Positions 11,611 to 26,208 are shown, counted from the stretch's first letter. The stretch is DNA of 64,000 bases from a virus (IMGVR_UViG_3300028840_003271:64001-128000); one strand, 5' to 3'. Notes: a model not told the origin generated them from the sequence alone. Program-made: numbers and translations.

Positions 11611-11626
11611 TGGCATAGCTTTTGCT
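11611..11626 (+). promoter_or_regulatory. sigma54 (-24/-12) motif TGGCATAGCTTTTGCT
   Basis: GG-N10-GC, close to consensus TGGCAC-N5-TTGC. Confidence 0.65.
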
Positions 11627-14981: not shown

Positions 14982-15044
14982 AGCAAACCGTATGCCAATG
15001 GTTCGGTATGGCATTTGCTGTCGGGTTTTGGTACGAAAGTTGCT
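14982..15044. promoter_or_regulatory. cluster of three sigma54-type motifs (14982-14997 minus, 15004-15019 plus, 15029-15044 plus)
   Basis: TGGCATACGGTTTGCT, CGGTATGGCATTTGCT, TGGTACGAAAGTTGCT; all GG-N10-GC. Confidence 0.65.
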
Positions 15045-15243: not shown

Positions 15244-16188
15244 TCAAACGGACACCTTTTTGTTTCCGTTTCTTACTAATCTTAATCTATCGTTCATATT
15301 ATCTTTATCACTTCCAAGTTCCAAATGGTAAGGATTACAGCATAATTTATTATCACATTTATGACGAACAACCAATCCGTTAAAAGGTTTATTAGAGAAA
15401 AGAAAATACATTAAACGGTGAGCGGGCCATGTACGTCCTGTTAATTTAATTTGTCCATATCCATCTTTACACGTCTTTCTTGTCCACAATAAACATTCTT
15501 CTTTGTCTCTTATAATAATTGATGCTTTATCTCGACCTTTATATTTTAAGTTTTTCAATAATGGATCAAATTTAAACTCAACTCTTGTTTTATCAAAAAA
15601 AGATAAAAAATATTCAACTTGTCGATACGTTAAATTTAATATTTGATGTTTAATAGTAGTATTATATAACATGGTTGAATCAAGCCCATATAAATATCTT
15701 GCTTCTAATTTCATCGCTTCGTGTTCTGTATTCGTATATTTCAAAACACCATATCCAAAATTATCACGTCCTAACTTATTATAATCTTGTTGTAGGTTTC
15801 TATTTTCGTGTTTGTTTTGATTAAGAAATCTAACATGTGTTTGAAATCTATAACCCAAATTTGAAGTATATCCAATATAAAATTTATTATTAATCAAACA
15901 CTGAATAAAATACAACCCACACAAATTTTCCAAACTTGTATTATTGATAATTTGTTTCTCATTATAGTGTGCTACAGTACCAATTTTAATCAACTTGAAC
16001 TCTCGTGCTTTATTATAAATAGCATATTGTGATTTATTAAAATGTTTTTGTAACTCTTTATTTGACATTTTGTGATACAACTTTTTAAATTCTTGTTCGT
16101 CTTTTGCTGTCCAGTGTGAGCGATATTTTTTATTTGGTCCACAAGAACCTTTTGGTCTACCTACTTTCTTTTTTTTCAACATGTACAT
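15244..16188 (-). CDS. homing-endonuclease-like fusion: HTH + GIY-YIG + HNH
   Basis: WTAKDEQ HTH; GLYFIQ..FYIG..RF..H; GYG..AHR..VRHKCDNKLCCNPYHL..N; AGGAGG RBS. Confidence 0.85.
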   Translation of the reverse strand: MYMLKKKKVGRPKGSCGPNKKYRSHWTAKDEQEFKKLYHKMSNKELQKHFNKSQYAIYNKAREFKLIKIGTVAHYNEKQIINNTSLENLCGLYFIQCLINNKFYIGYTSNLGYRFQTHVRFLNQNKHENRNLQQDYNKLGRDNFGYGVLKYTNTEHEAMKLEARYLYGLDSTMLYNTTIKHQILNLTYRQVEYFLSFFDKTRVEFKFDPLLKNLKYKGRDKASIIIRDKEECLLWTRKTCKDGYGQIKLTGRTWPAHRLMYFLFSNKPFNGLVVRHKCDNKLCCNPYHLELGSDKDNMNDRLRLVRNGNKKVSV

Positions 16189-16399
16189 GTATATTATCCT
16201 CCTGTTTTTCTATACACCAAAAAATCCCCCTATGTCCATGTTTAATAATTCCCAACTTCCTCCTCTGTTTACGTAAAGCTTGCAAACTAATTTTTCGCCC
16301 ACTCAAATTCTCCAATTTCCGACATAACTCCTCATCTTTCATGGTGGGAGCTAACTTTTTAATAAGTGCGTGTTCTGCTGGCGTCCACACTATATTCAC
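16157..16399 (-). CDS. small HTH protein, RpoN-box-like; paralog of 19181..19384
   Basis: AAGGAG RBS, GTG start; TMKDEELCRKL...GRKISLQALRKQRRKLGI. Confidence 0.7.
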   Translation of the reverse strand: MNIVWTPAEHALIKKLAPTMKDEELCRKLENLSGRKISLQALRKQRRKLGIIKHGHRGIFWCIEKQEDNIHVHVEKKESR

Positions 16400-16483
16400 T
16401 TTTTTTCTCCTTAATTTGTTAATTTGTTAATTTGTTAATTTGTTTTTGTGTTTATGTGCTTATGTAGTAGTAATGTGACTAAT

Positions 16484-16492
16484 GGTGTATAA
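16484..16492 (+). promoter_or_regulatory. putative late promoter GGTGTATAA
   Basis: Motif recurs upstream of structural genes. Confidence 0.7.
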
Positions 16493-16577
16493 TTACATAA
16501 GAAAACTTACAAAGTACAAAAAGTACAAAAAGTACAAAAAGTACAAGGCACAAGGTACAAGGTACAAGGTCTTTATT

Positions 16578-17072
16578 ATGGCAAACGATATATTTTCATG
16601 TAAAGGAACGGGCAATACTACACTTAACCATGCCGTAATTGTAACAAATATTCCTGGAACTGGTTATGCTCGAAATGATGATTTTAGAACTCAAAACCCC
16701 ACTTTAACTAAAATTCAAGACAAATGGGACGCGAGATTTGATGACGTGGGCGTTATAACCTCTACATCTGGAACCACGGGTGATCTTACTGGAAGTGGTG
16801 GAACTTACAAGAATACGGGAGCAACGGCTCTTACAGAATACAACCTACCTTCTGCGTCCGAGGGTTTAAATTACTCTTTTCTTGTAACAAATTCCAATGG
16901 AATTCGTGTAAATGCGAATACAAGTGATCGAATTCTCGTTGGAGAGGTTACGGGCGTAATTGGTGGTTATGTCGAATCGTCTGGTGTTGGTTCAGTTTTG
17001 AAGCTTCTAGCCGTTGACAGTCAAGATTGGTATAGTCAAGAATTTGAGGGTGGGTGGTTTCTAAAACAATAA
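16578..17072 (+). CDS. putative virion protein: 55-aa module plus fibre-type beta-sandwich domain
   Basis: N-terminus paralogous to 17108..17293; C-terminus similar to those of 41200 and 41673 proteins. Confidence 0.7.
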   Translation: MANDIFSCKGTGNTTLNHAVIVTNIPGTGYARNDDFRTQNPTLTKIQDKWDARFDDVGVITSTSGTTGDLTGSGGTYKNTGATALTEYNLPSASEGLNYSFLVTNSNGIRVNANTSDRILVGEVTGVIGGYVESSGVGSVLKLLAVDSQDWYSQEFEGGWFLKQ

Positions 17073-17107
17073 GTTAGCAAGCTAACAAAAAGATAAAGAG
17101 AGAAAAA

Positions 17108-17293
17108 ATGACAAATGATATTCACGCGGCTAAAGGGGCGGGAAACACACAATTAAATCATGCCGTTGTTGTGACCAACACTCCAGGAACCGGCTACATG
17201 GCAGGTCGTGATGACATTACAAACAGTCCCACGCTCACAAAAATTCAAGATAAGTGGGACGCGAGATTTGATGATTACGACGCATACGACTAG
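17108..17293 (+). CDS. small putative virion protein (stand-alone module)
   Basis: LNHAV.VTN.PGTGY...PTLTKIQDKWDARFDD shared with upstream gene. Confidence 0.75.
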   Translation: MTNDIHAAKGAGNTQLNHAVVVTNTPGTGYMAGRDDITNSPTLTKIQDKWDARFDDYDAYD

Positions 17294-17326
17294 CGGCAAA
17301 AACTCAAATTAAAAACAAAAACAAAA

Positions 17327-17361
17327 GAAGGTCGGAATTTAATGTTTTTTTCCGACCCTTT
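17327..17361. terminator. probable bidirectional terminator between convergent genes
   Basis: GGTCGGAA/TTCCGACC stem flanked by A-rich and T-rich tracts. Confidence 0.7.
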
Positions 17362-17392
17362 CCATTTATTTTTTTATTTTTTATTTTTTTCT

Positions 17393-17632
17393 CTATAAAA
17401 TTACGTCGTCGTCTGGATCAGGTGTTACGGCTTCTTCAGCAATTTGGCGATTTCCAATATGTACCTGAACCACAACCCATTTTCGCACTCGTTCTTTAAA
17501 CCAAGCTGCTTCACCCATTGTGGGTTCGCCCGTTTCTTCGTCAAGTGGAACCGGATGAACTTTTAAAAATCCAGCCCGAAACGATGGAACTTTTGCTTCG
17601 GGAATCGTAAAAGTAATGTTAACATCGGCCAT
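17393..17632 (-). CDS. small protein downstream of fibre-like gene (possible chaperone)
   Basis: AAGGAG RBS; gene position. Confidence 0.65.
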   Translation of the reverse strand: MADVNITFTIPEAKVPSFRAGFLKVHPVPLDEETGEPTMGEAAWFKERVRKWVVVQVHIGNRQIAEEAVTPDPDDDVIL

Positions 17633-17689
17633 TTATTTTTTTCTCCTTAATTTTTATTTTTTTTTATTTTTATTGTTATTGTTATTTAA

Positions 17690-19048
17690 TTAGTGTGCTG
17701 AAATTCCTAAACAATAAATTGTAACTGCCTCGGAACTTTCTGTAACATTTGTAACCACAGCCATAAAAGTACCCGTTTCTCCTTCTCCAATTGCGTTACT
17801 TGGATCGTTTGGAGAGATGGTTACACCTGTTCCTCCGTCGAGGGTGAGATCTTGGTCGTCATCGGTATTATGAATATAAAATGTAAATCCGTCACCAACT
17901 TGACAATTTGGAATGGCGGCTACAATATTTGCTGCTGTGTCTGTATCGTCTTCTTTTGCTCCAGCCGTCATGCCTGAACGAATAATCATTTTTCCTAACA
18001 TTTCTGCTGCTGTGTGCGTTCCAGCTCCATCCGTTGTGTCGGTTGTGACTACATATTTTTCAGTTAATGCTCCATGAATAGTAACGTTTTGCCCAAAAAT
18101 GGCATTGCCCGAGCTGTCAATCTTAAACCAGTCTCCATCCGTGTTGTCGTCACTCGATACCATAAACGGGGCTGTTGCTCCACCCGAGGCAGAGACTTCC
18201 AGAATGGCGTCGGGGTCGTCATCTCCAATTCCAAGCTCACCAGCACCAGTGAAGTATGCTACTTGAGTATCGCCGACAGTAAAGACCATCTCATCATTGG
18301 CGTCTGTTTCCGTATGATCGTACAAAATGCCGCCTTCTAGCGAATCATTGTTGTCGCCAAAGATGAGATATGCGTTCTTGTTATTTGGACAAAGTATACT
18401 GATTGCAACATTGTCATTCTTCTCAACTGACAAGGCCGAATAGCTATGGCTGCTTACCGAAGCATCGGAAGCCATGAAATGTCCCAAGGTGTCAGGCGAA
18501 GTTGTACCAATGCCGACGTTGCCGTCATGATCTATTCTCAGTGCTTCAAAAACAGCACCACTATTAGCTACAGAAAATACTAATTCGGTACTATTATTGT
18601 CTGCTGCAAAAGTATCATCTGCTTCAGCCCAAATTGATGCACCAACAACAATAGCATCTGTTCCATCAGATTCTAATGGAGCTTGAAAATCAATTTGTCC
18701 CAATTTATCTCCATCGACAACAGTAAGTTCTTTTGTTGATAAAGTTATAGTACCAGCAGCAGCGGCAGCGGCACGCAATTCTAACATTGATCCTGGAGAC
18801 GGTGTTCCTAAACCAATTCTAGCAGTTGAAGCGTCATAAAAAAAGTCATTAGCAGAAGTATCTCCACTAAAACTTAAATCCACGTTTTCTTGTTTTTCAT
18901 TAAATGTCCAAGTTCGATTATTTAAAGAAAATGGTCCTATTGAATTTAAAGTTGCTCCAGATTGAGCAGAAATTATATCTACAATAGAAAAAGTTATTAT
19001 TGAGAAGAAAAATAAGGATAAAAACAAACCTATAATTTTAGGTGGCAT
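17690..19048 (-). CDS. tail-fibre-like protein with N-terminal signal peptide/TM
   Basis: RIGLGTPSP, GNVGIGTTSP, GELGIGDDDP repeats; hydrophobic N-terminus ending ISA-Q; late motif upstream. Confidence 0.75.
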   Translation of the reverse strand: MPPKIIGLFLSLFFFSIITFSIVDIISAQSGATLNSIGPFSLNNRTWTFNEKQENVDLSFSGDTSANDFFYDASTARIGLGTPSPGSMLELRAAAAAAGTITLSTKELTVVDGDKLGQIDFQAPLESDGTDAIVVGASIWAEADDTFAADNNSTELVFSVANSGAVFEALRIDHDGNVGIGTTSPDTLGHFMASDASVSSHSYSALSVEKNDNVAISILCPNNKNAYLIFGDNNDSLEGGILYDHTETDANDEMVFTVGDTQVAYFTGAGELGIGDDDPDAILEVSASGGATAPFMVSSDDNTDGDWFKIDSSGNAIFGQNVTIHGALTEKYVVTTDTTDGAGTHTAAEMLGKMIIRSGMTAGAKEDDTDTAANIVAAIPNCQVGDGFTFYIHNTDDDQDLTLDGGTGVTISPNDPSNAIGEGETGTFMAVVTNVTESSEAVTIYCLGISAH

Positions 19049-19078
19049 GATAAATCTCCGTTTTCGTAATTATATATA

Positions 19079-19087
19079 TTATACACC
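19079..19087 (-). promoter_or_regulatory. putative late promoter GGTGTATAA
   Basis: About 30 bp upstream of 19048 start. Confidence 0.7.
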
Positions 19088-19180
19088 AATTCACAAATTA
19101 CGAAAATAAAAAACTGCCGAGAAAAAAATTTCCCGACAGTTAACAGTTAACAGTTAAAATCAGCTTATTAATTTACTAGT

Positions 19181-19384
19181 TTACTGACTTACTACCGTAC
19201 AACCTCGCCCACGAGCCTTTTTAATACCTAATTCTCGACGAACAGCACGCACATCAGACACGGTAAATACTGACCCGTTTTTTTCACTTAATGTTTGAGA
19301 CAGCCTTTTATCTGTCATAGTCGAGGCGTTTTCCTGCACATAAGTCTTAACGTCCTCATTCCACACTTTCTTTACTCTTGCCAT
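19181..19384 (-). CDS. small HTH protein, RpoN-box-like
   Basis: GAGGA RBS before MARVKK; TMTDKRLSQTLSEKNGSVFTVSDVRAVRRELGI. Confidence 0.7.
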   Translation of the reverse strand: MARVKKVWNEDVKTYVQENASTMTDKRLSQTLSEKNGSVFTVSDVRAVRRELGIKKARGRGCTVVSQ

Positions 19385-19505
19385 TTTTTTGTCCTCTCTA
19401 AACTTTTTTTGAGCACTTGTGTTTTTTGAATGACAAACTACTTCGTTTATCATATTATATAATACAGTTCGAAACTTTTTTTTCACAAACAAAAAGGAAA
19501 TTTTC

Positions 19506-19694
19506 ATGACTTTTTTGAAATCAACGCTCGAAGTTAAGGCTGTGGGCGGACTTACGGAGCAAATCGGTGGTGAAATTAATTTACCAGATCCACCAAAAGA
19601 GGTTGCTCAGGCAATGTTAATGTCTATCGACGAAATAGACGAAGACGATGAAGAAGAAAACAAAAAAAATGCAAATTCCAAACGGAATGACTGA
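19506..19694 (+). CDS. small acidic hypothetical protein
   Basis: AAGGA RBS; leads the sigma-factor operon. Confidence 0.6.
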   Translation: MTFLKSTLEVKAVGGLTEQIGGEINLPDPPKEVAQAMLMSIDEIDEDDEEENKKNANSKRND

Positions 19695-20253
19695 AAATGA
19701 AGTTGTTGAAATTATTAATAAAATAGCTCGACGACTTTCTACAATTTTTCGATTTGGATATTATAGTGCGGACGATATATTTCAAGAGGCATGGATTATT
19801 GCTATCGAGGGTTTAAACCGATATTCTGTTCAAAAGGGTCCTCTTGAAAACTTTCTTTGGATACATGTTCGTAATCGTTTGTGTAATTTTAAAAGAAATA
19901 AATATGAAAGATTGGAAAAACCTTGTAAAAGATGCATATACGACTGTGAAGAATCACCGTTGTGTGAAATTTATAATAAATGGTTAAAAAGACGAGATAG
20001 TAAAAAAAATTTGGTAGATATGATCGACTTGAATTGCGTAGATGATAAATATGAAAAAAATATGAAAATTGTTAATGAATATGGAGATATTGATCATTTG
20101 TCTGAAATTATTGATAAATTTTTACCTCCACAATATCGTCGTGACTATTTACAGATGATTGGTGGTATATATGTGCCCAAAAAAAGACGAATTGAAATTC
20201 AGAATATAATTCGTGAAATTCTAGAAGAACATGGATATGATATTGATTTTTAA
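19648..20253 (+). CDS. phage RNA polymerase sigma factor (sigma70 region-2 type), probable late sigma
   Basis: DDIFQEAWIIAIEGLNRY...LENFLWIHVRNRL; start may be 19669. Confidence 0.8.
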   Translation: MKKKTKKMQIPNGMTENEVVEIINKIARRLSTIFRFGYYSADDIFQEAWIIAIEGLNRYSVQKGPLENFLWIHVRNRLCNFKRNKYERLEKPCKRCIYDCEESPLCEIYNKWLKRRDSKKNLVDMIDLNCVDDKYEKNMKIVNEYGDIDHLSEIIDKFLPPQYRRDYLQMIGGIYVPKKRRIEIQNIIREILEEHGYDIDF

Positions 20254-21143
20254 TGGTTAAAAAAATATCTCAAGAACAATTAGATCGAGAAAATAAGCGT
20301 GGTCGATGGTCTACTAAAGCCACCGAACTTATTATGAATTGTATGAATTTGGGTGAGGATGCTCATACAATTAAAGAAAAATTGGAAAATATGAAGCCAC
20401 CATGTAAAAGAAATTTAAACACTTTGGTAAAATATATGACAAAATTGAGAATGAAGGTTGGATTAAAACAAGCAACGGATAAAATTGAAGGATTAAGTTT
20501 GGGTTTACGAGCAAAAACTTTTTATCCACGACTTAAATCTCAATTTTCAGCAGACGAGTTAGAATATTTTGAAGAGTTGTGGGTGCGTTATATGGAACAG
20601 TTTCGAGAAGACGTATTACCTTCTGAAGAAATGCAATTAAAACAACTTTTGACTTTGGAAATTTTTATTACTCGGGCTGTTGAAGATAAAAGAAAGTTGA
20701 CTCGTAGAATAGAAAAATTACAAAAAATATTAGATGCGGAATATGAAAAAAAAGATCCAGATTTAAAAGTTATAGGTAATTTACAAACAGATATTGATAC
20801 AATTAGAGACAGTTTAGCAACACATAATAAAGATTATCTAAACTTAATTCAAGAACACCGAACACTAAATAAAGAACTTAAAGCAGATCGTAATCAACGA
20901 ATAAAAAGAATTGATGACTCAAAAAGTCATTGGGCTGGACTTTTGAGATTATTAGATGATGCTGAAATTCGTTCACGAGTTGGAGAACATATTGAGTTAC
21001 GACGGGTAGCTAAAGATAAAGCTAAAGAAAAATTGTCTGAATTACATATTTATGAAGACGAACGGGCTGATTACCCATTATTAAATGCAGATACAATATT
21101 ACAAGTACAAGGAGATGAAAATGACGAAGAGGATTCCAATTAG
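20253..21143 (+). CDS. coiled-coil protein, candidate terminase small subunit
   Basis: Helical coiled coil, upstream of TerL in same operon; function inferred from position. Confidence 0.45.
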   Translation: MVKKISQEQLDRENKRGRWSTKATELIMNCMNLGEDAHTIKEKLENMKPPCKRNLNTLVKYMTKLRMKVGLKQATDKIEGLSLGLRAKTFYPRLKSQFSADELEYFEELWVRYMEQFREDVLPSEEMQLKQLLTLEIFITRAVEDKRKLTRRIEKLQKILDAEYEKKDPDLKVIGNLQTDIDTIRDSLATHNKDYLNLIQEHRTLNKELKADRNQRIKRIDDSKSHWAGLLRLLDDAEIRSRVGEHIELRRVAKDKAKEKLSELHIYEDERADYPLLNADTILQVQGDENDEEDSN

Positions 21144-21363
21144 TTTAATGGAACCAAGTAGCTTGGTTAAACCAAGTCGAGATAGTGTAAAAAAAGTTAG
21201 ATTAAGTGAGAAAGAAAAGGCAAAACGAAAACAGGAAGAAGAAGAAAAGAAAATTGAGCGTGAAAAATTAAAAAAACCCAAGGATTATTTTGTAATAAAA
21301 GAAGGTGAAGTGGAATGTCAAGGAACCGTTTTTACCGGAGGAAAATATGTCAAGCATAAGTGA
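21085..21363 (+). CDS. hypothetical charged protein
   Basis: Overlaps neighbours; true start probably near 21115-21121. Confidence 0.5.
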   Translation: MQIQYYKYKEMKMTKRIPISLMEPSSLVKPSRDSVKKVRLSEKEKAKRKQEEEEKKIEREKLKKPKDYFVIKEGEVECQGTVFTGGKYVKHK

Positions 21364-25604: not shown

Positions 25605-26208
25605 TTATATTAATAAAATTATTTTAGGTGATTGTTTACAGGTAATGAAAGAAATTCCGTCTTCATCTATAGACTTAATTATTACAGATCCACCATATGA
25701 AGAAAAATATAATTATTTATGGGAACCTTTTGCCGAGCAATCTTCACGATTATTAAAAGTTGGTGGTTCGTTAGTTACTTTGTGTGGACACTATCAATTA
25801 CCGTATGTTATTTCTTCTCTCAATAAATATTTGAGATATTGGTGGATTGGTTGGTTATATCATCCTGGAAATTTTAATAGATTTCCTGGTAAATGGGTGT
25901 GTATAACAGGTAAACCTTTTTTATGGTATGTAAAAGAAAAAAGAAAAAAGAAAGACTATAGGTGTCCCGAAGATACTATTTTTAGTGATTTACAACAATC
26001 TAAAATAGCAAAACTAAAACATAAATGGGGACAGTCAGAAAATTTGTTCAGTAAGTATATTAAAGAATTATCAAACGAAAACGATGTTATATTAGATCCT
26101 TTTATTGGTTCTGGTACAACTATTAGAGTTGCTAAGAAATTAAATAGAAAATTTATTGGTATTGAAATTGATAAGAAATATTATGAATTATGTAAGGAAA
26201 TTGAATGA
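25588..26208 (+). CDS. N6A/N4C DNA methyltransferase (beta class)
   Basis: ITDPPY precedes LDPFIGSGTT; GIEID. Confidence 0.92.
   Translation: MRKIDNYINKIILGDCLQVMKEIPSSSIDLIITDPPYEEKYNYLWEPFAEQSSRLLKVGGSLVTLCGHYQLPYVISSLNKYLRYWWIGWLYHPGNFNRFPGKWVCITGKPFLWYVKEKRKKKDYRCPEDTIFSDLQQSKIAKLKHKWGQSENLFSKYIKELSNENDVILDPFIGSGTTIRVAKKLNRKFIGIEIDKKYYELCKEIE

Follow-up and report, generated by a model that had tools for sequence, protein, structure and literature searches.

Small helix-turn-helix (HTH) proteins are common in phages, and GcrA sequences start with W-T-x-x-E and end in ...LG, as do the proteins analyzed here. In sigma-54, the joint replacement of R455 and R456 within the RpoN box (mutant AC455/456) abolished activity (PMC2715252). 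This work concerns two short open reading frames (ORFs), mini1 and mini2, located in a 64,000-nt stretch of viral DNA (IMGVR_UViG_3300028840_003271:64001-128000, hereafter the window). The IMG/VR phage record from which it is taken, at bases 64001-128000, is complete, 170,004 bp long and carries direct terminal repeats. The window is AT-rich (GC about 31%), with a GC-rich patch at 12-15 kb. In the original prediction both ORFs were described as paralogs resembling the isolated RpoN-box HTH of sigma-54, placed next to an island of sigma-54-type sites. Based on their sequences, both belong to an unnamed and widespread family of predicted phage DNA-binding proteins, which is of an ordinary kind, the family itself being newly defined here.

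Two paralogous genes and the mini-HTH family

The two ORFs are real paralogs (33% identity over 55 aa, BLASTP E 2e-8), and their coordinates and residues were confirmed. On a family hidden Markov model (HMM) built without the window proteins, mini1 and mini2 scored 86.8 and 75.4 bits, respectively, so that their similarity is far beyond chance and the proposed paralogy was borne out. The two genes and the signals flanking mini2 are as follows:

16157 to 16399, minus strand: mini1, 80 aa; three-helix HTH (residues 7-48) followed by a basic hairpin and a tail
19181 to 19384, minus strand: mini2, 67 aa; strongly diverged family member at the conserved syntenic position
19459 to 19488, minus strand: sigma70-like promoter match upstream of mini2 (TTGTGA-18-TATTAT; consensus match only), with the same layout in relatives
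19112 to 19141, minus strand: intrinsic terminator-like hairpin right after mini2 (13-bp stem and T run)

The start codon of mini1 is a GTG, 7 nt past AAGGAG, and that of mini2 an ATG after GAGAGGA. A 108-aa version of mini2 was considered unlikely and the 67-aa version preferred, because family members begin 2-4 residues before the conserved Trp. No third full copy was found in the 170,004-bp genome, and weaker copies of the HTH were present at the N-termini of a 296-aa protein (gene start at 20253) and of a homing endonuclease (15244-16188). Directly upstream of the Shine-Dalgarno (SD) sequence of mini1, CAAATTAA occurs in four perfect tandem copies (16411-16442, minus strand), which have no counterpart in the equivalent regions of relatives.

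An exhaustive HMMER search of 1.84 billion proteins with a two-sequence profile showed that the family comprises at least 414 representative clusters (50% identity) at E<=1e-3, and 80 at E<=1e-10; uncultured viruses account for almost all of them. The typical member is a stand-alone protein, mostly of 60-120 aa, with the domain at residues 2-62, and about 140 of the 150 best matches were stand-alone proteins. The family consensus from residue 2 reads MN.VWT..E..FI..NA.TM.D.ELA..L....GR.VS.QAVRKQRQKLGI.K..GRG.C and is followed by a variable tail. In an alignment of 127 members, residues W5, D22, R43, R46, K53, G56, R57 and G58 were invariant or nearly so, and Cys60 was found in 96 members. Both window proteins matched the HMM of the family defined here (alignment A3) over its full length and carry W5, D22, R43, R46, K53, R57 and G58, while the Cys is displaced in both.

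Searches with mini1, mini2 and the 127 members yielded no Pfam family for these proteins, and the stand-alone GRG-x-C hairpin family has no PHROG of its own (best PHROG E-value 1.5e-8). The PHROG votes of the 127 members went mainly to the N-terminal part of phrog_1891 ('HNH endonuclease', 30 members), followed by the 'transcriptional regulator' families phrog_14101 (14) and phrog_323 (7). Matches to Pfam RTC (19 members) were rejected, as they covered a short motif (residues 26-63) with at most 18.6 bits against a 27-bit cut-off, and Sigma70_r4 matched none of the 127 members. In 50,697 GenBank phage records there was no tblastn match with a family member or mini2, and the closest large terminase (TerL) of a cultured phage was 23-25% identical. 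A word-index homolog search with mini1 returned only mini1 itself. Among 185,579 species genomes a single match was obtained (locus L044, on the 10.5-kb contig JAZFSF010000202.1 of a Bathyarchaeia metagenome-assembled genome); this is probably a viral contig binned with the archaeal genome, and it offered no clue to the host. The Atlas neighbours of the family were viral hypothetical clusters, and one Atlas structure row was an HNH_3 family with the same N-terminal fold. In addition, the complete mini domain was found fused to HNH in protein P0057 and to LAGLIDADG in P0123. The suggestion that these might be generic phage HTHs was therefore partly right, in that HNH and LAGLIDADG endonucleases also carry the domain N-terminally.

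In a maximum-likelihood tree, mini1 grouped with the copies from the related loci L005 and L007 (support 84-87), which were also the closest in their sigma and 296-aa proteins, and mini2 stood alone. The terminal branches of mini1 (2.0) and mini2 (about 4, the longest) were long relative to the median (0.25), which indicates that both evolved fast after duplication or acquisition. The mini2 protein has changed at residues of the recognition helix that are conserved in the family (K44A and Q45V), and the change in mini1 affects the hairpin, where G56 is replaced by H.

Predicted fold and resemblance to the sigma-54 RpoN domain

An AlphaFold2 (AF2) model built on the 127-sequence alignment placed helices at residues 7-16, 22-33 and 39-48 with high per-residue confidence (pLDDT 90-96; for mini1, 90-96 over residues 1-50), and a lower-confidence hairpin at residues 52-63 bearing the conserved K..GRG.C. 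The predicted fold is a three-helix HTH of ~50 residues with a nearly invariant basic K-x-x-G-R-G-x-C hairpin ('wing') and a variable tail. Foldseek gave no match below E 0.2 against PDB, the top rows being winged-helix domains of Fur and ArgR/AhrC, and a PDB sequence search with the two-sequence profile returned only noise. The exhaustive VIA structure search gave the following neighbours, all of them DNA-binding HTH or winged-helix domains:

G20C small-terminase N-terminal HTH: Z 6.8
GcrA DNA-binding domain (PDB 5YIU): Z 6.7, root-mean-square deviation 1.4 A over 46 residues, 22% identity
Timeless Myb-like repeat: Z 6.0
ArgR: Z 6.0
Tc3 transposase: Z 5.6
Sigma-54 5UI5: Z 5.5, 23% identity
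Sigma-54 8RE4: Z 5.2
Several Myb domains: Z 5.0-5.4

As these scores were tied, and Z values of 5-7 are common for helical domains generally, the structural evidence supports a 'tri-helical or winged HTH' without preference for RpoN. The best RpoN match (Z 5.5) was level with Myb and Tc3 and lower than the terminase HTH and GcrA, so that specificity for RpoN was not supported; on the structural side, this is the outcome that the original prediction had named as counting against it.

The resemblance to the RpoN scaffold is, by profile comparison, real, yet non-exclusive. The family was compared with the C-termini of 120 genuine sigma-54 proteins, all from Chloroflexota-like sources, and hhalign yielded a probability of 91.5% (E 8.6e-7, score 34.7) in one direction and 95.5% (E 1.4e-8) in the other. 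In 40 column shuffles the score was 10.1 ± 2.0 (maximum 15.6), and with a reversed alignment 9.1, the real score thus being about 12 standard deviations above the shuffles. The same relation was detected with a sigma-54 C-terminal HMM, whose top 40 matches in a background of 733 proteins (about 580 of them other proteins of related phages) were all mini-family members (best 23 bits). The best PDB sequence matches of the family profile corresponded to the Aquifex RpoN C-terminal domain (2AHQ and 2O8K), at a non-significant E of 0.12-0.35, with an alignment spanning helix 2, helix 3 and LGI. These comparisons bear out the scaffold likeness noted at first.

At the level of Pfam, positions 118-158 of Sigma54_DBD (PF04552) matched the best two family members with 19.9 and 16.1 bits (cut-off 22.8). 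Neither mini1 nor mini2 matched this domain at E<=1, and a six-frame search of the whole phage at E<=10 found no match and hence no sigma-54 encoded by the phage. The columns facing E. coli R455/R456 were L/V/I and Q/H/S in all 127 members, only K and the final R remaining of the RpoN box, in agreement with the reported divergence of the recognition residues. Moreover, the polypeptide context of sigma-54 (core-binding domain and region I) was not found: mini1 and mini2 are stand-alone, each with its own SD, and mini2 has its own terminator. A candidate sigma-54 activator (PF00158; a 299-aa AAA+ ORF at G000:C1:49734-50060, minus strand, outside the window, 23 bits summed) was discarded as evidence because the control rings in 14 of 14 genomes, archaea included; it is most likely a generic AAA+ ATPase.

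The third-best match of the two-sequence profile in the 1.84 billion proteins was P0003, followed by P0076. Both consist largely of RpoN-type repeats:

P0003: 603 aa, 9 tandem copies of the last ~57 Sigma54_DBD positions, Pfam E 1e-85
P0076: 400 aa, 6 tandem copies of the last ~57 Sigma54_DBD positions, Pfam E 3e-55

On the family HMM, individual repeats aligned along almost the entire domain with scores of up to 25 bits, and they were 54-55% identical to Chloroflexota sigma-54 C-termini. Both proteins come from metagenomes (55-kb and 96-kb ENA contigs); a hydrophobic, signal-peptide-like N-terminus precedes the repeats, which are devoid of the ARRT part of the RpoN box. We know of no described architecture of this kind.

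The family was also related by hhalign to the Myb-type repeats of P0095 (85%), to the HTH repeats of P0116 (98%) and to the N-terminus of the 296-aa protein (96-97%, E 2.5e-9 to 4e-11). In an all-against-all matrix, sigma-54 and Myb remained mutually undetected (0.2-0.5%) and were linked by the mini family, the N-terminal half of which (W5, helices 1-2) is Myb-like, while helices 2-3 are RpoN-like. Myb repeats scored at most 4 bits on the family HMM, and PF00249 (Myb) was absent from the 25 most-voted families among the 127 members at E<=1, so that the proteins could not be assigned to Myb/SANT. The GcrA family (PF07750) was likewise absent from these 25 families.

Genomic position, control region and sigma-54-type boxes

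An IMG/VR scan with a 12-sequence alignment recovered 37 related loci, in which ORFs were called crudely and clustered. In 35 of the 37, a single mini gene lies head-to-head with a conserved operon encoding, in this order, a small acidic protein, a sigma factor (~205 aa), an HTH/coiled-coil protein (~270 aa), sometimes a 360-aa protein, a GDP-mannose dehydratase (Gmd), an HNH protein, an ERCC4-type nuclease and TerL. The same order is found in the window starting from mini2 (acidic protein at 19506, sigma at 19648, 296-aa protein at 20253, Gmd at 21305 and TerL at 26205), and the proteins of this operon share 39-56% identity with those of the relatives. The head-to-head position is thus held by mini2, and mini1 lies 2.8 kb further on, divergent from a different gene. 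The first genes of the operon are:

19506 to 19694, plus strand: small acidic protein of family F8, 62 aa, first gene of the divergent operon; BLASTP matches to F8 in 4 related loci
19648 to 20253, plus strand: phage sigma factor, 201 aa, with region 2 only detected (Pfam Sigma70_r2 E 9.5e-7, TIGR02937)
20253 to 21143, plus strand: 296-aa protein with a mini-like HTH at residues about 18-68 (nt 20304-20456) and long coiled coils

The sigma factor has homologs in 35 of the loci, in every case encoded divergently to the mini gene, and hhalign detected no relation between the mini family and the sigma factor (0.2%). The suggested link to the adjacent phage sigma gained support from this head-to-head synteny. 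The 296-aa protein also has homologs in 35 loci, and its AF2 model showed very long coiled-coil helices (residues 123-165 and 171-262). AF2 combined with Foldseek searches (PDB and viral structures) was uninformative for this protein, and the HK97 small terminase (TerS) was reached only at E about 1; it is a possible candidate for a small terminase or a regulator.

The region downstream of the mini gene has little in common among relatives. On that side, 18 of the 37 contigs terminate no more than 1.6 kb past the mini gene (L008, L009, L012, L013, L017, L019, L021-L023, L025-L027, L029, L032, L033 and L039-L041), while none end within 5 kb upstream. Because two of these contigs (L012 and L039) break inside the variable tail of the mini gene, the ends are probably due to assemblies breaking in a region that varies between strains or is rich in repeats, and are less likely to mark the physical end of the genome.

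The layout of the ~100-bp intergenic region upstream of the mini gene is conserved (L005-L041). It includes AAAGT[GT]G[TA]C and a TATAAT/TATATA hexamer, which is -10-like in the direction of the mini gene and usable in both directions. This AT-rich hexamer overlaps TATACAC, the reverse complement of GTGTATA, which is oriented towards the operon of the acidic protein and the sigma factor. Just before the SD of the mini gene, several loci show an inverted copy (G.CAACTTTTT). Late genes in the window are preceded by GGTGTATAW (10 found vs. 1.36 expected), and mini2, with its own sigma70-like promoter and terminator, has no GGTGTATAW in its own orientation. Close to mini1, one motif occupies a comparable place:

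16484 to 16492, plus strand: GGTGTATAA motif, candidate promoter for the phage sigma, directed away from mini1, which is also its orientation in the intergenic regions of relatives

Downstream of mini1 lie an endonuclease gene and, beyond it, the head of the island with sigma-54-type sites:

15244 to 16188, minus strand: GIY-YIG and HNH homing endonuclease (Pfam and PHROG matches)
14982 to 15044, no strand assigned: sigma-54-type boxes ('island head'), 1.1 kb downstream of mini1, given as context

The motif TGGYAY-N5-TTGCW was found four times in the window (0.27 expected), two of them at 14982-15044. A sigma-54-type box is also located at 11611. In order to compare with the relatives, boxes were counted in non-redundant related loci, over 179 kb upstream and 90 kb downstream of the mini gene. 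Exact boxes were absent upstream, while four were found downstream (0.12 expected). The same trend was observed when one mismatch was allowed, with 3 boxes upstream (4.3 expected) and 9 downstream (2.2 expected; shuffle maximum 6). Near-consensus boxes (TGGCAC-N5-TTGC) were located, in bases after the mini stop codon, at +1109 in L014, +5525 in L020, +40 in L030, +432, +2745 and +3244 in L031, and +4887 in L036. In relatives these boxes are confined to the variable region downstream of the mini gene, most of them on the opposite strand. Their arrangement is not fixed: the distance from the mini gene can be as short as 40 bp or as long as 5.5 kb, the strand differs between boxes, and the majority of loci with sufficient flanking sequence lack a box altogether. 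The mini gene adjoins a box-bearing region in several lineages, which may reflect plain synteny.

The N-terminal HTH of the endonuclease (residues 26-74, nt 15967-16113) weakly resembles mini1 (BLASTP E 0.006), and the protein has its own AGGAGG SD and an AT-hook. The start of its gene overlaps the 3' end of mini1 by 32 nt (16157-16188) across an A8 run, the endonuclease being in the +1 frame, and slippage at this run could in principle produce a mini1-endonuclease fusion like the mini-HNH protein P0057. Since mini1 abuts an endonuclease and the P0057 and P0123 fusions exist elsewhere, endonucleases seem to insert readily at the site downstream of the mini gene.

A second duplicated pair was observed between the two mini genes. 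It consists of ORFs at 16482-17072 (196 aa) and 17108-17293 (61 aa), both on the plus strand, the shorter product being 71% identical to residues 33-88 of the longer one (E 2e-27). The true start of the 196-aa ORF is probably the internal Met33, and neither ORF had homologs in the related loci.

Possible roles and comparison with known systems

We tentatively favour, short of considering it probable, that the mini proteins are early, host-sigma70-transcribed, sequence-specific HTH regulators of the divergent control region. The paralogy, family membership, fold, synteny and promoter-like layout described above form its basis, while DNA binding, early timing and regulatory target are its predicted components. 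The mini gene would be transcribed early by host sigma70, and its product would bind the overlapping divergent promoters common to the mini gene and the sigma/packaging operon, and possibly also sites in the variable early region downstream. Such binding would set the time at which the phage sigma/packaging operon is expressed. The gene is duplicated here, mini2 having kept the position and changed its recognition helix, and mini1 having kept the sequence type and now abutting the homing endonuclease and the GC-rich island. The fixed place of the mini gene beside a sigma-factor/terminase operon in large uncultured phages makes it a good candidate for an early-to-late switch.

Several observations weigh against such a regulatory role. 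The largest PHROG vote of the family (30 of 127 members) went to the N-terminal domain of an HNH endonuclease, and the mini domain is therefore not regulator-specific. The early timing is inferred, since no cultured relative carries the gene, and the mini proteins stand as predicted regulators. Moreover, the promoter calls rest on consensus matches, the region upstream of mini2 does not have the TATACAC element of the relatives, and AAAGT[GT]G[TA]C partly coincides with the SD and 5' untranslated region of the acidic-protein gene; in the window, AAAGTKGWC was not enriched (3 found vs. 3.3 expected).

The function proposed at first, that of stand-alone RpoN-domain homologs binding the -24 element of the island boxes and blocking or competing with host sigma-54 RNA polymerase, was left unsupported and appears very unlikely. 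It could draw on the profile relation to sigma-54 C-termini, on the sigma-54-only HMM pulling only family members from the background, on the family profile also matching proteins with 6-9 tandem RpoN-type repeats, on the enrichment of boxes downstream but not upstream of the mini gene, and on a phage that has no sigma-54 gene of its own. However, the essential RpoN-box arginines are replaced throughout the family, mini1 and mini2 have no Sigma54_DBD match, and the RpoN structures were tied with other HTHs. The boxes, in turn, retain the -24 as well as the -12 half with their exact spacing and therefore point to the host holoenzyme rather than to a single HTH, and their variable distance and strand, together with the many boxless loci, are what plain synteny may give. 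Nor do we give much credence to the mini proteins being free-standing descendants of the RpoN domain that would occupy or hand over the boxes, thereby controlling the access of the host sigma-54 holoenzyme. Unlikely, too, is a role as region-4-like DNA-binding or co-activator partner of the phage sigma at GGTGTATAA promoters. The adjacency of the two genes in 35 of 37 loci, the detection of region 2 only in the phage sigma and the frequency of single-domain sigma-like proteins in phages (bioRxiv 10.64898/2026.10.08.757525) count in its favour, but the mini gene is transcribed divergently, from its own sigma70-like promoter, and not together with the sigma gene. In addition, GGTGTATAA is a single extended -10-like element with no common upstream element that would need a second DNA reader, and the profile comparison with the sigma factor and the search for Sigma70_r4 were both negative.

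The overlap of mini1 with the GIY-YIG/HNH endonuclease gene, the full-domain fusions in P0057 and P0123, and the prevalence of phrog_1891 among PHROG matches together with the HNH_3 row of the Atlas would fit mini1 being a detached or frameshifted targeting domain, and the family as a whole endonuclease baggage. This is quite unlikely, as most best matches are stand-alone, the place of the gene is constant in 35 of 37 loci and free of a neighbouring endonuclease there, mini2 does not adjoin one either, the endonuclease is equipped with an SD, AT-hook and HTH of its own, and mini1 groups with the syntenic copies of L005 and L007. It is also rather improbable that the mini protein, as a free-standing version of the HTH found in the 296-aa protein, binds a packaging-initiation region. 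In support of this, the best structural match was the small-terminase HTH of phage G20C, the 296-aa protein has an N-terminus close to the family, the mini gene heads the terminase operon, and nearly half of the contigs (18 of 37) end shortly downstream of it. On the other side, it is unproven that the 296-aa protein is TerS, the breaks inside the mini gene of L012 and L039 fit assembly breaks better than genome ends, and a Z of 6.8 is within the range of unrelated helical matches. The probability left by these five readings belongs to a role that we did not foresee.

Whatever its role, the family is missing from Pfam, PHROGs and cultured phages despite its size. It was the only one tested here that links the isolated RpoN domain to Myb-like HTHs by profile, and as such it bears on the origin of the sigma-54 DNA-binding domain. 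If the association with sigma-54-type boxes were functional, it would represent a new phage way of dealing with host sigma-54, and if the boxes were occupied by mini proteins, these would act in trans as a phage-encoded factor for sigma-54 promoter-like DNA.

With respect to known systems, the mini family shares with the RpoN domain (the last ~57 positions of PF04552) a three-helix HTH, the Asp capping helix 2, the L...L and G positions and V.K.R..LGI. Unlike that domain, it consists of stand-alone proteins (67-80 aa here) without the RpoN-box arginines and below the Pfam threshold, and it has a conserved N-terminal Trp and a conserved GRG hairpin, both absent from sigma-54. The repeats of P0003 and P0076 resemble the family in having V-R-K-x-R-x-x-LGI and in missing the RR pair, but differ in their number (6-9 per protein) and in their clear Sigma54_DBD matches; these proteins are uncharacterised. 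The likeness to Myb/SANT domains lies in the N-terminal Trp, the three-helix layout and the structural scores (Z 5.0-5.4), although only the first of the three Myb tryptophans is conserved in the family. In the case of GcrA, 5YIU was the best-fitting small structure, and among named clusters GcrA ranked first in the Atlas feature search (score 0.85, taken as a lead only), yet GcrA has a sigma70-binding C-terminal domain that the mini proteins do not have. Among cultured phages, the closest families are the N-terminal HTH of the phrog_1891 HNH proteins, phrog_14101 and phrog_323.

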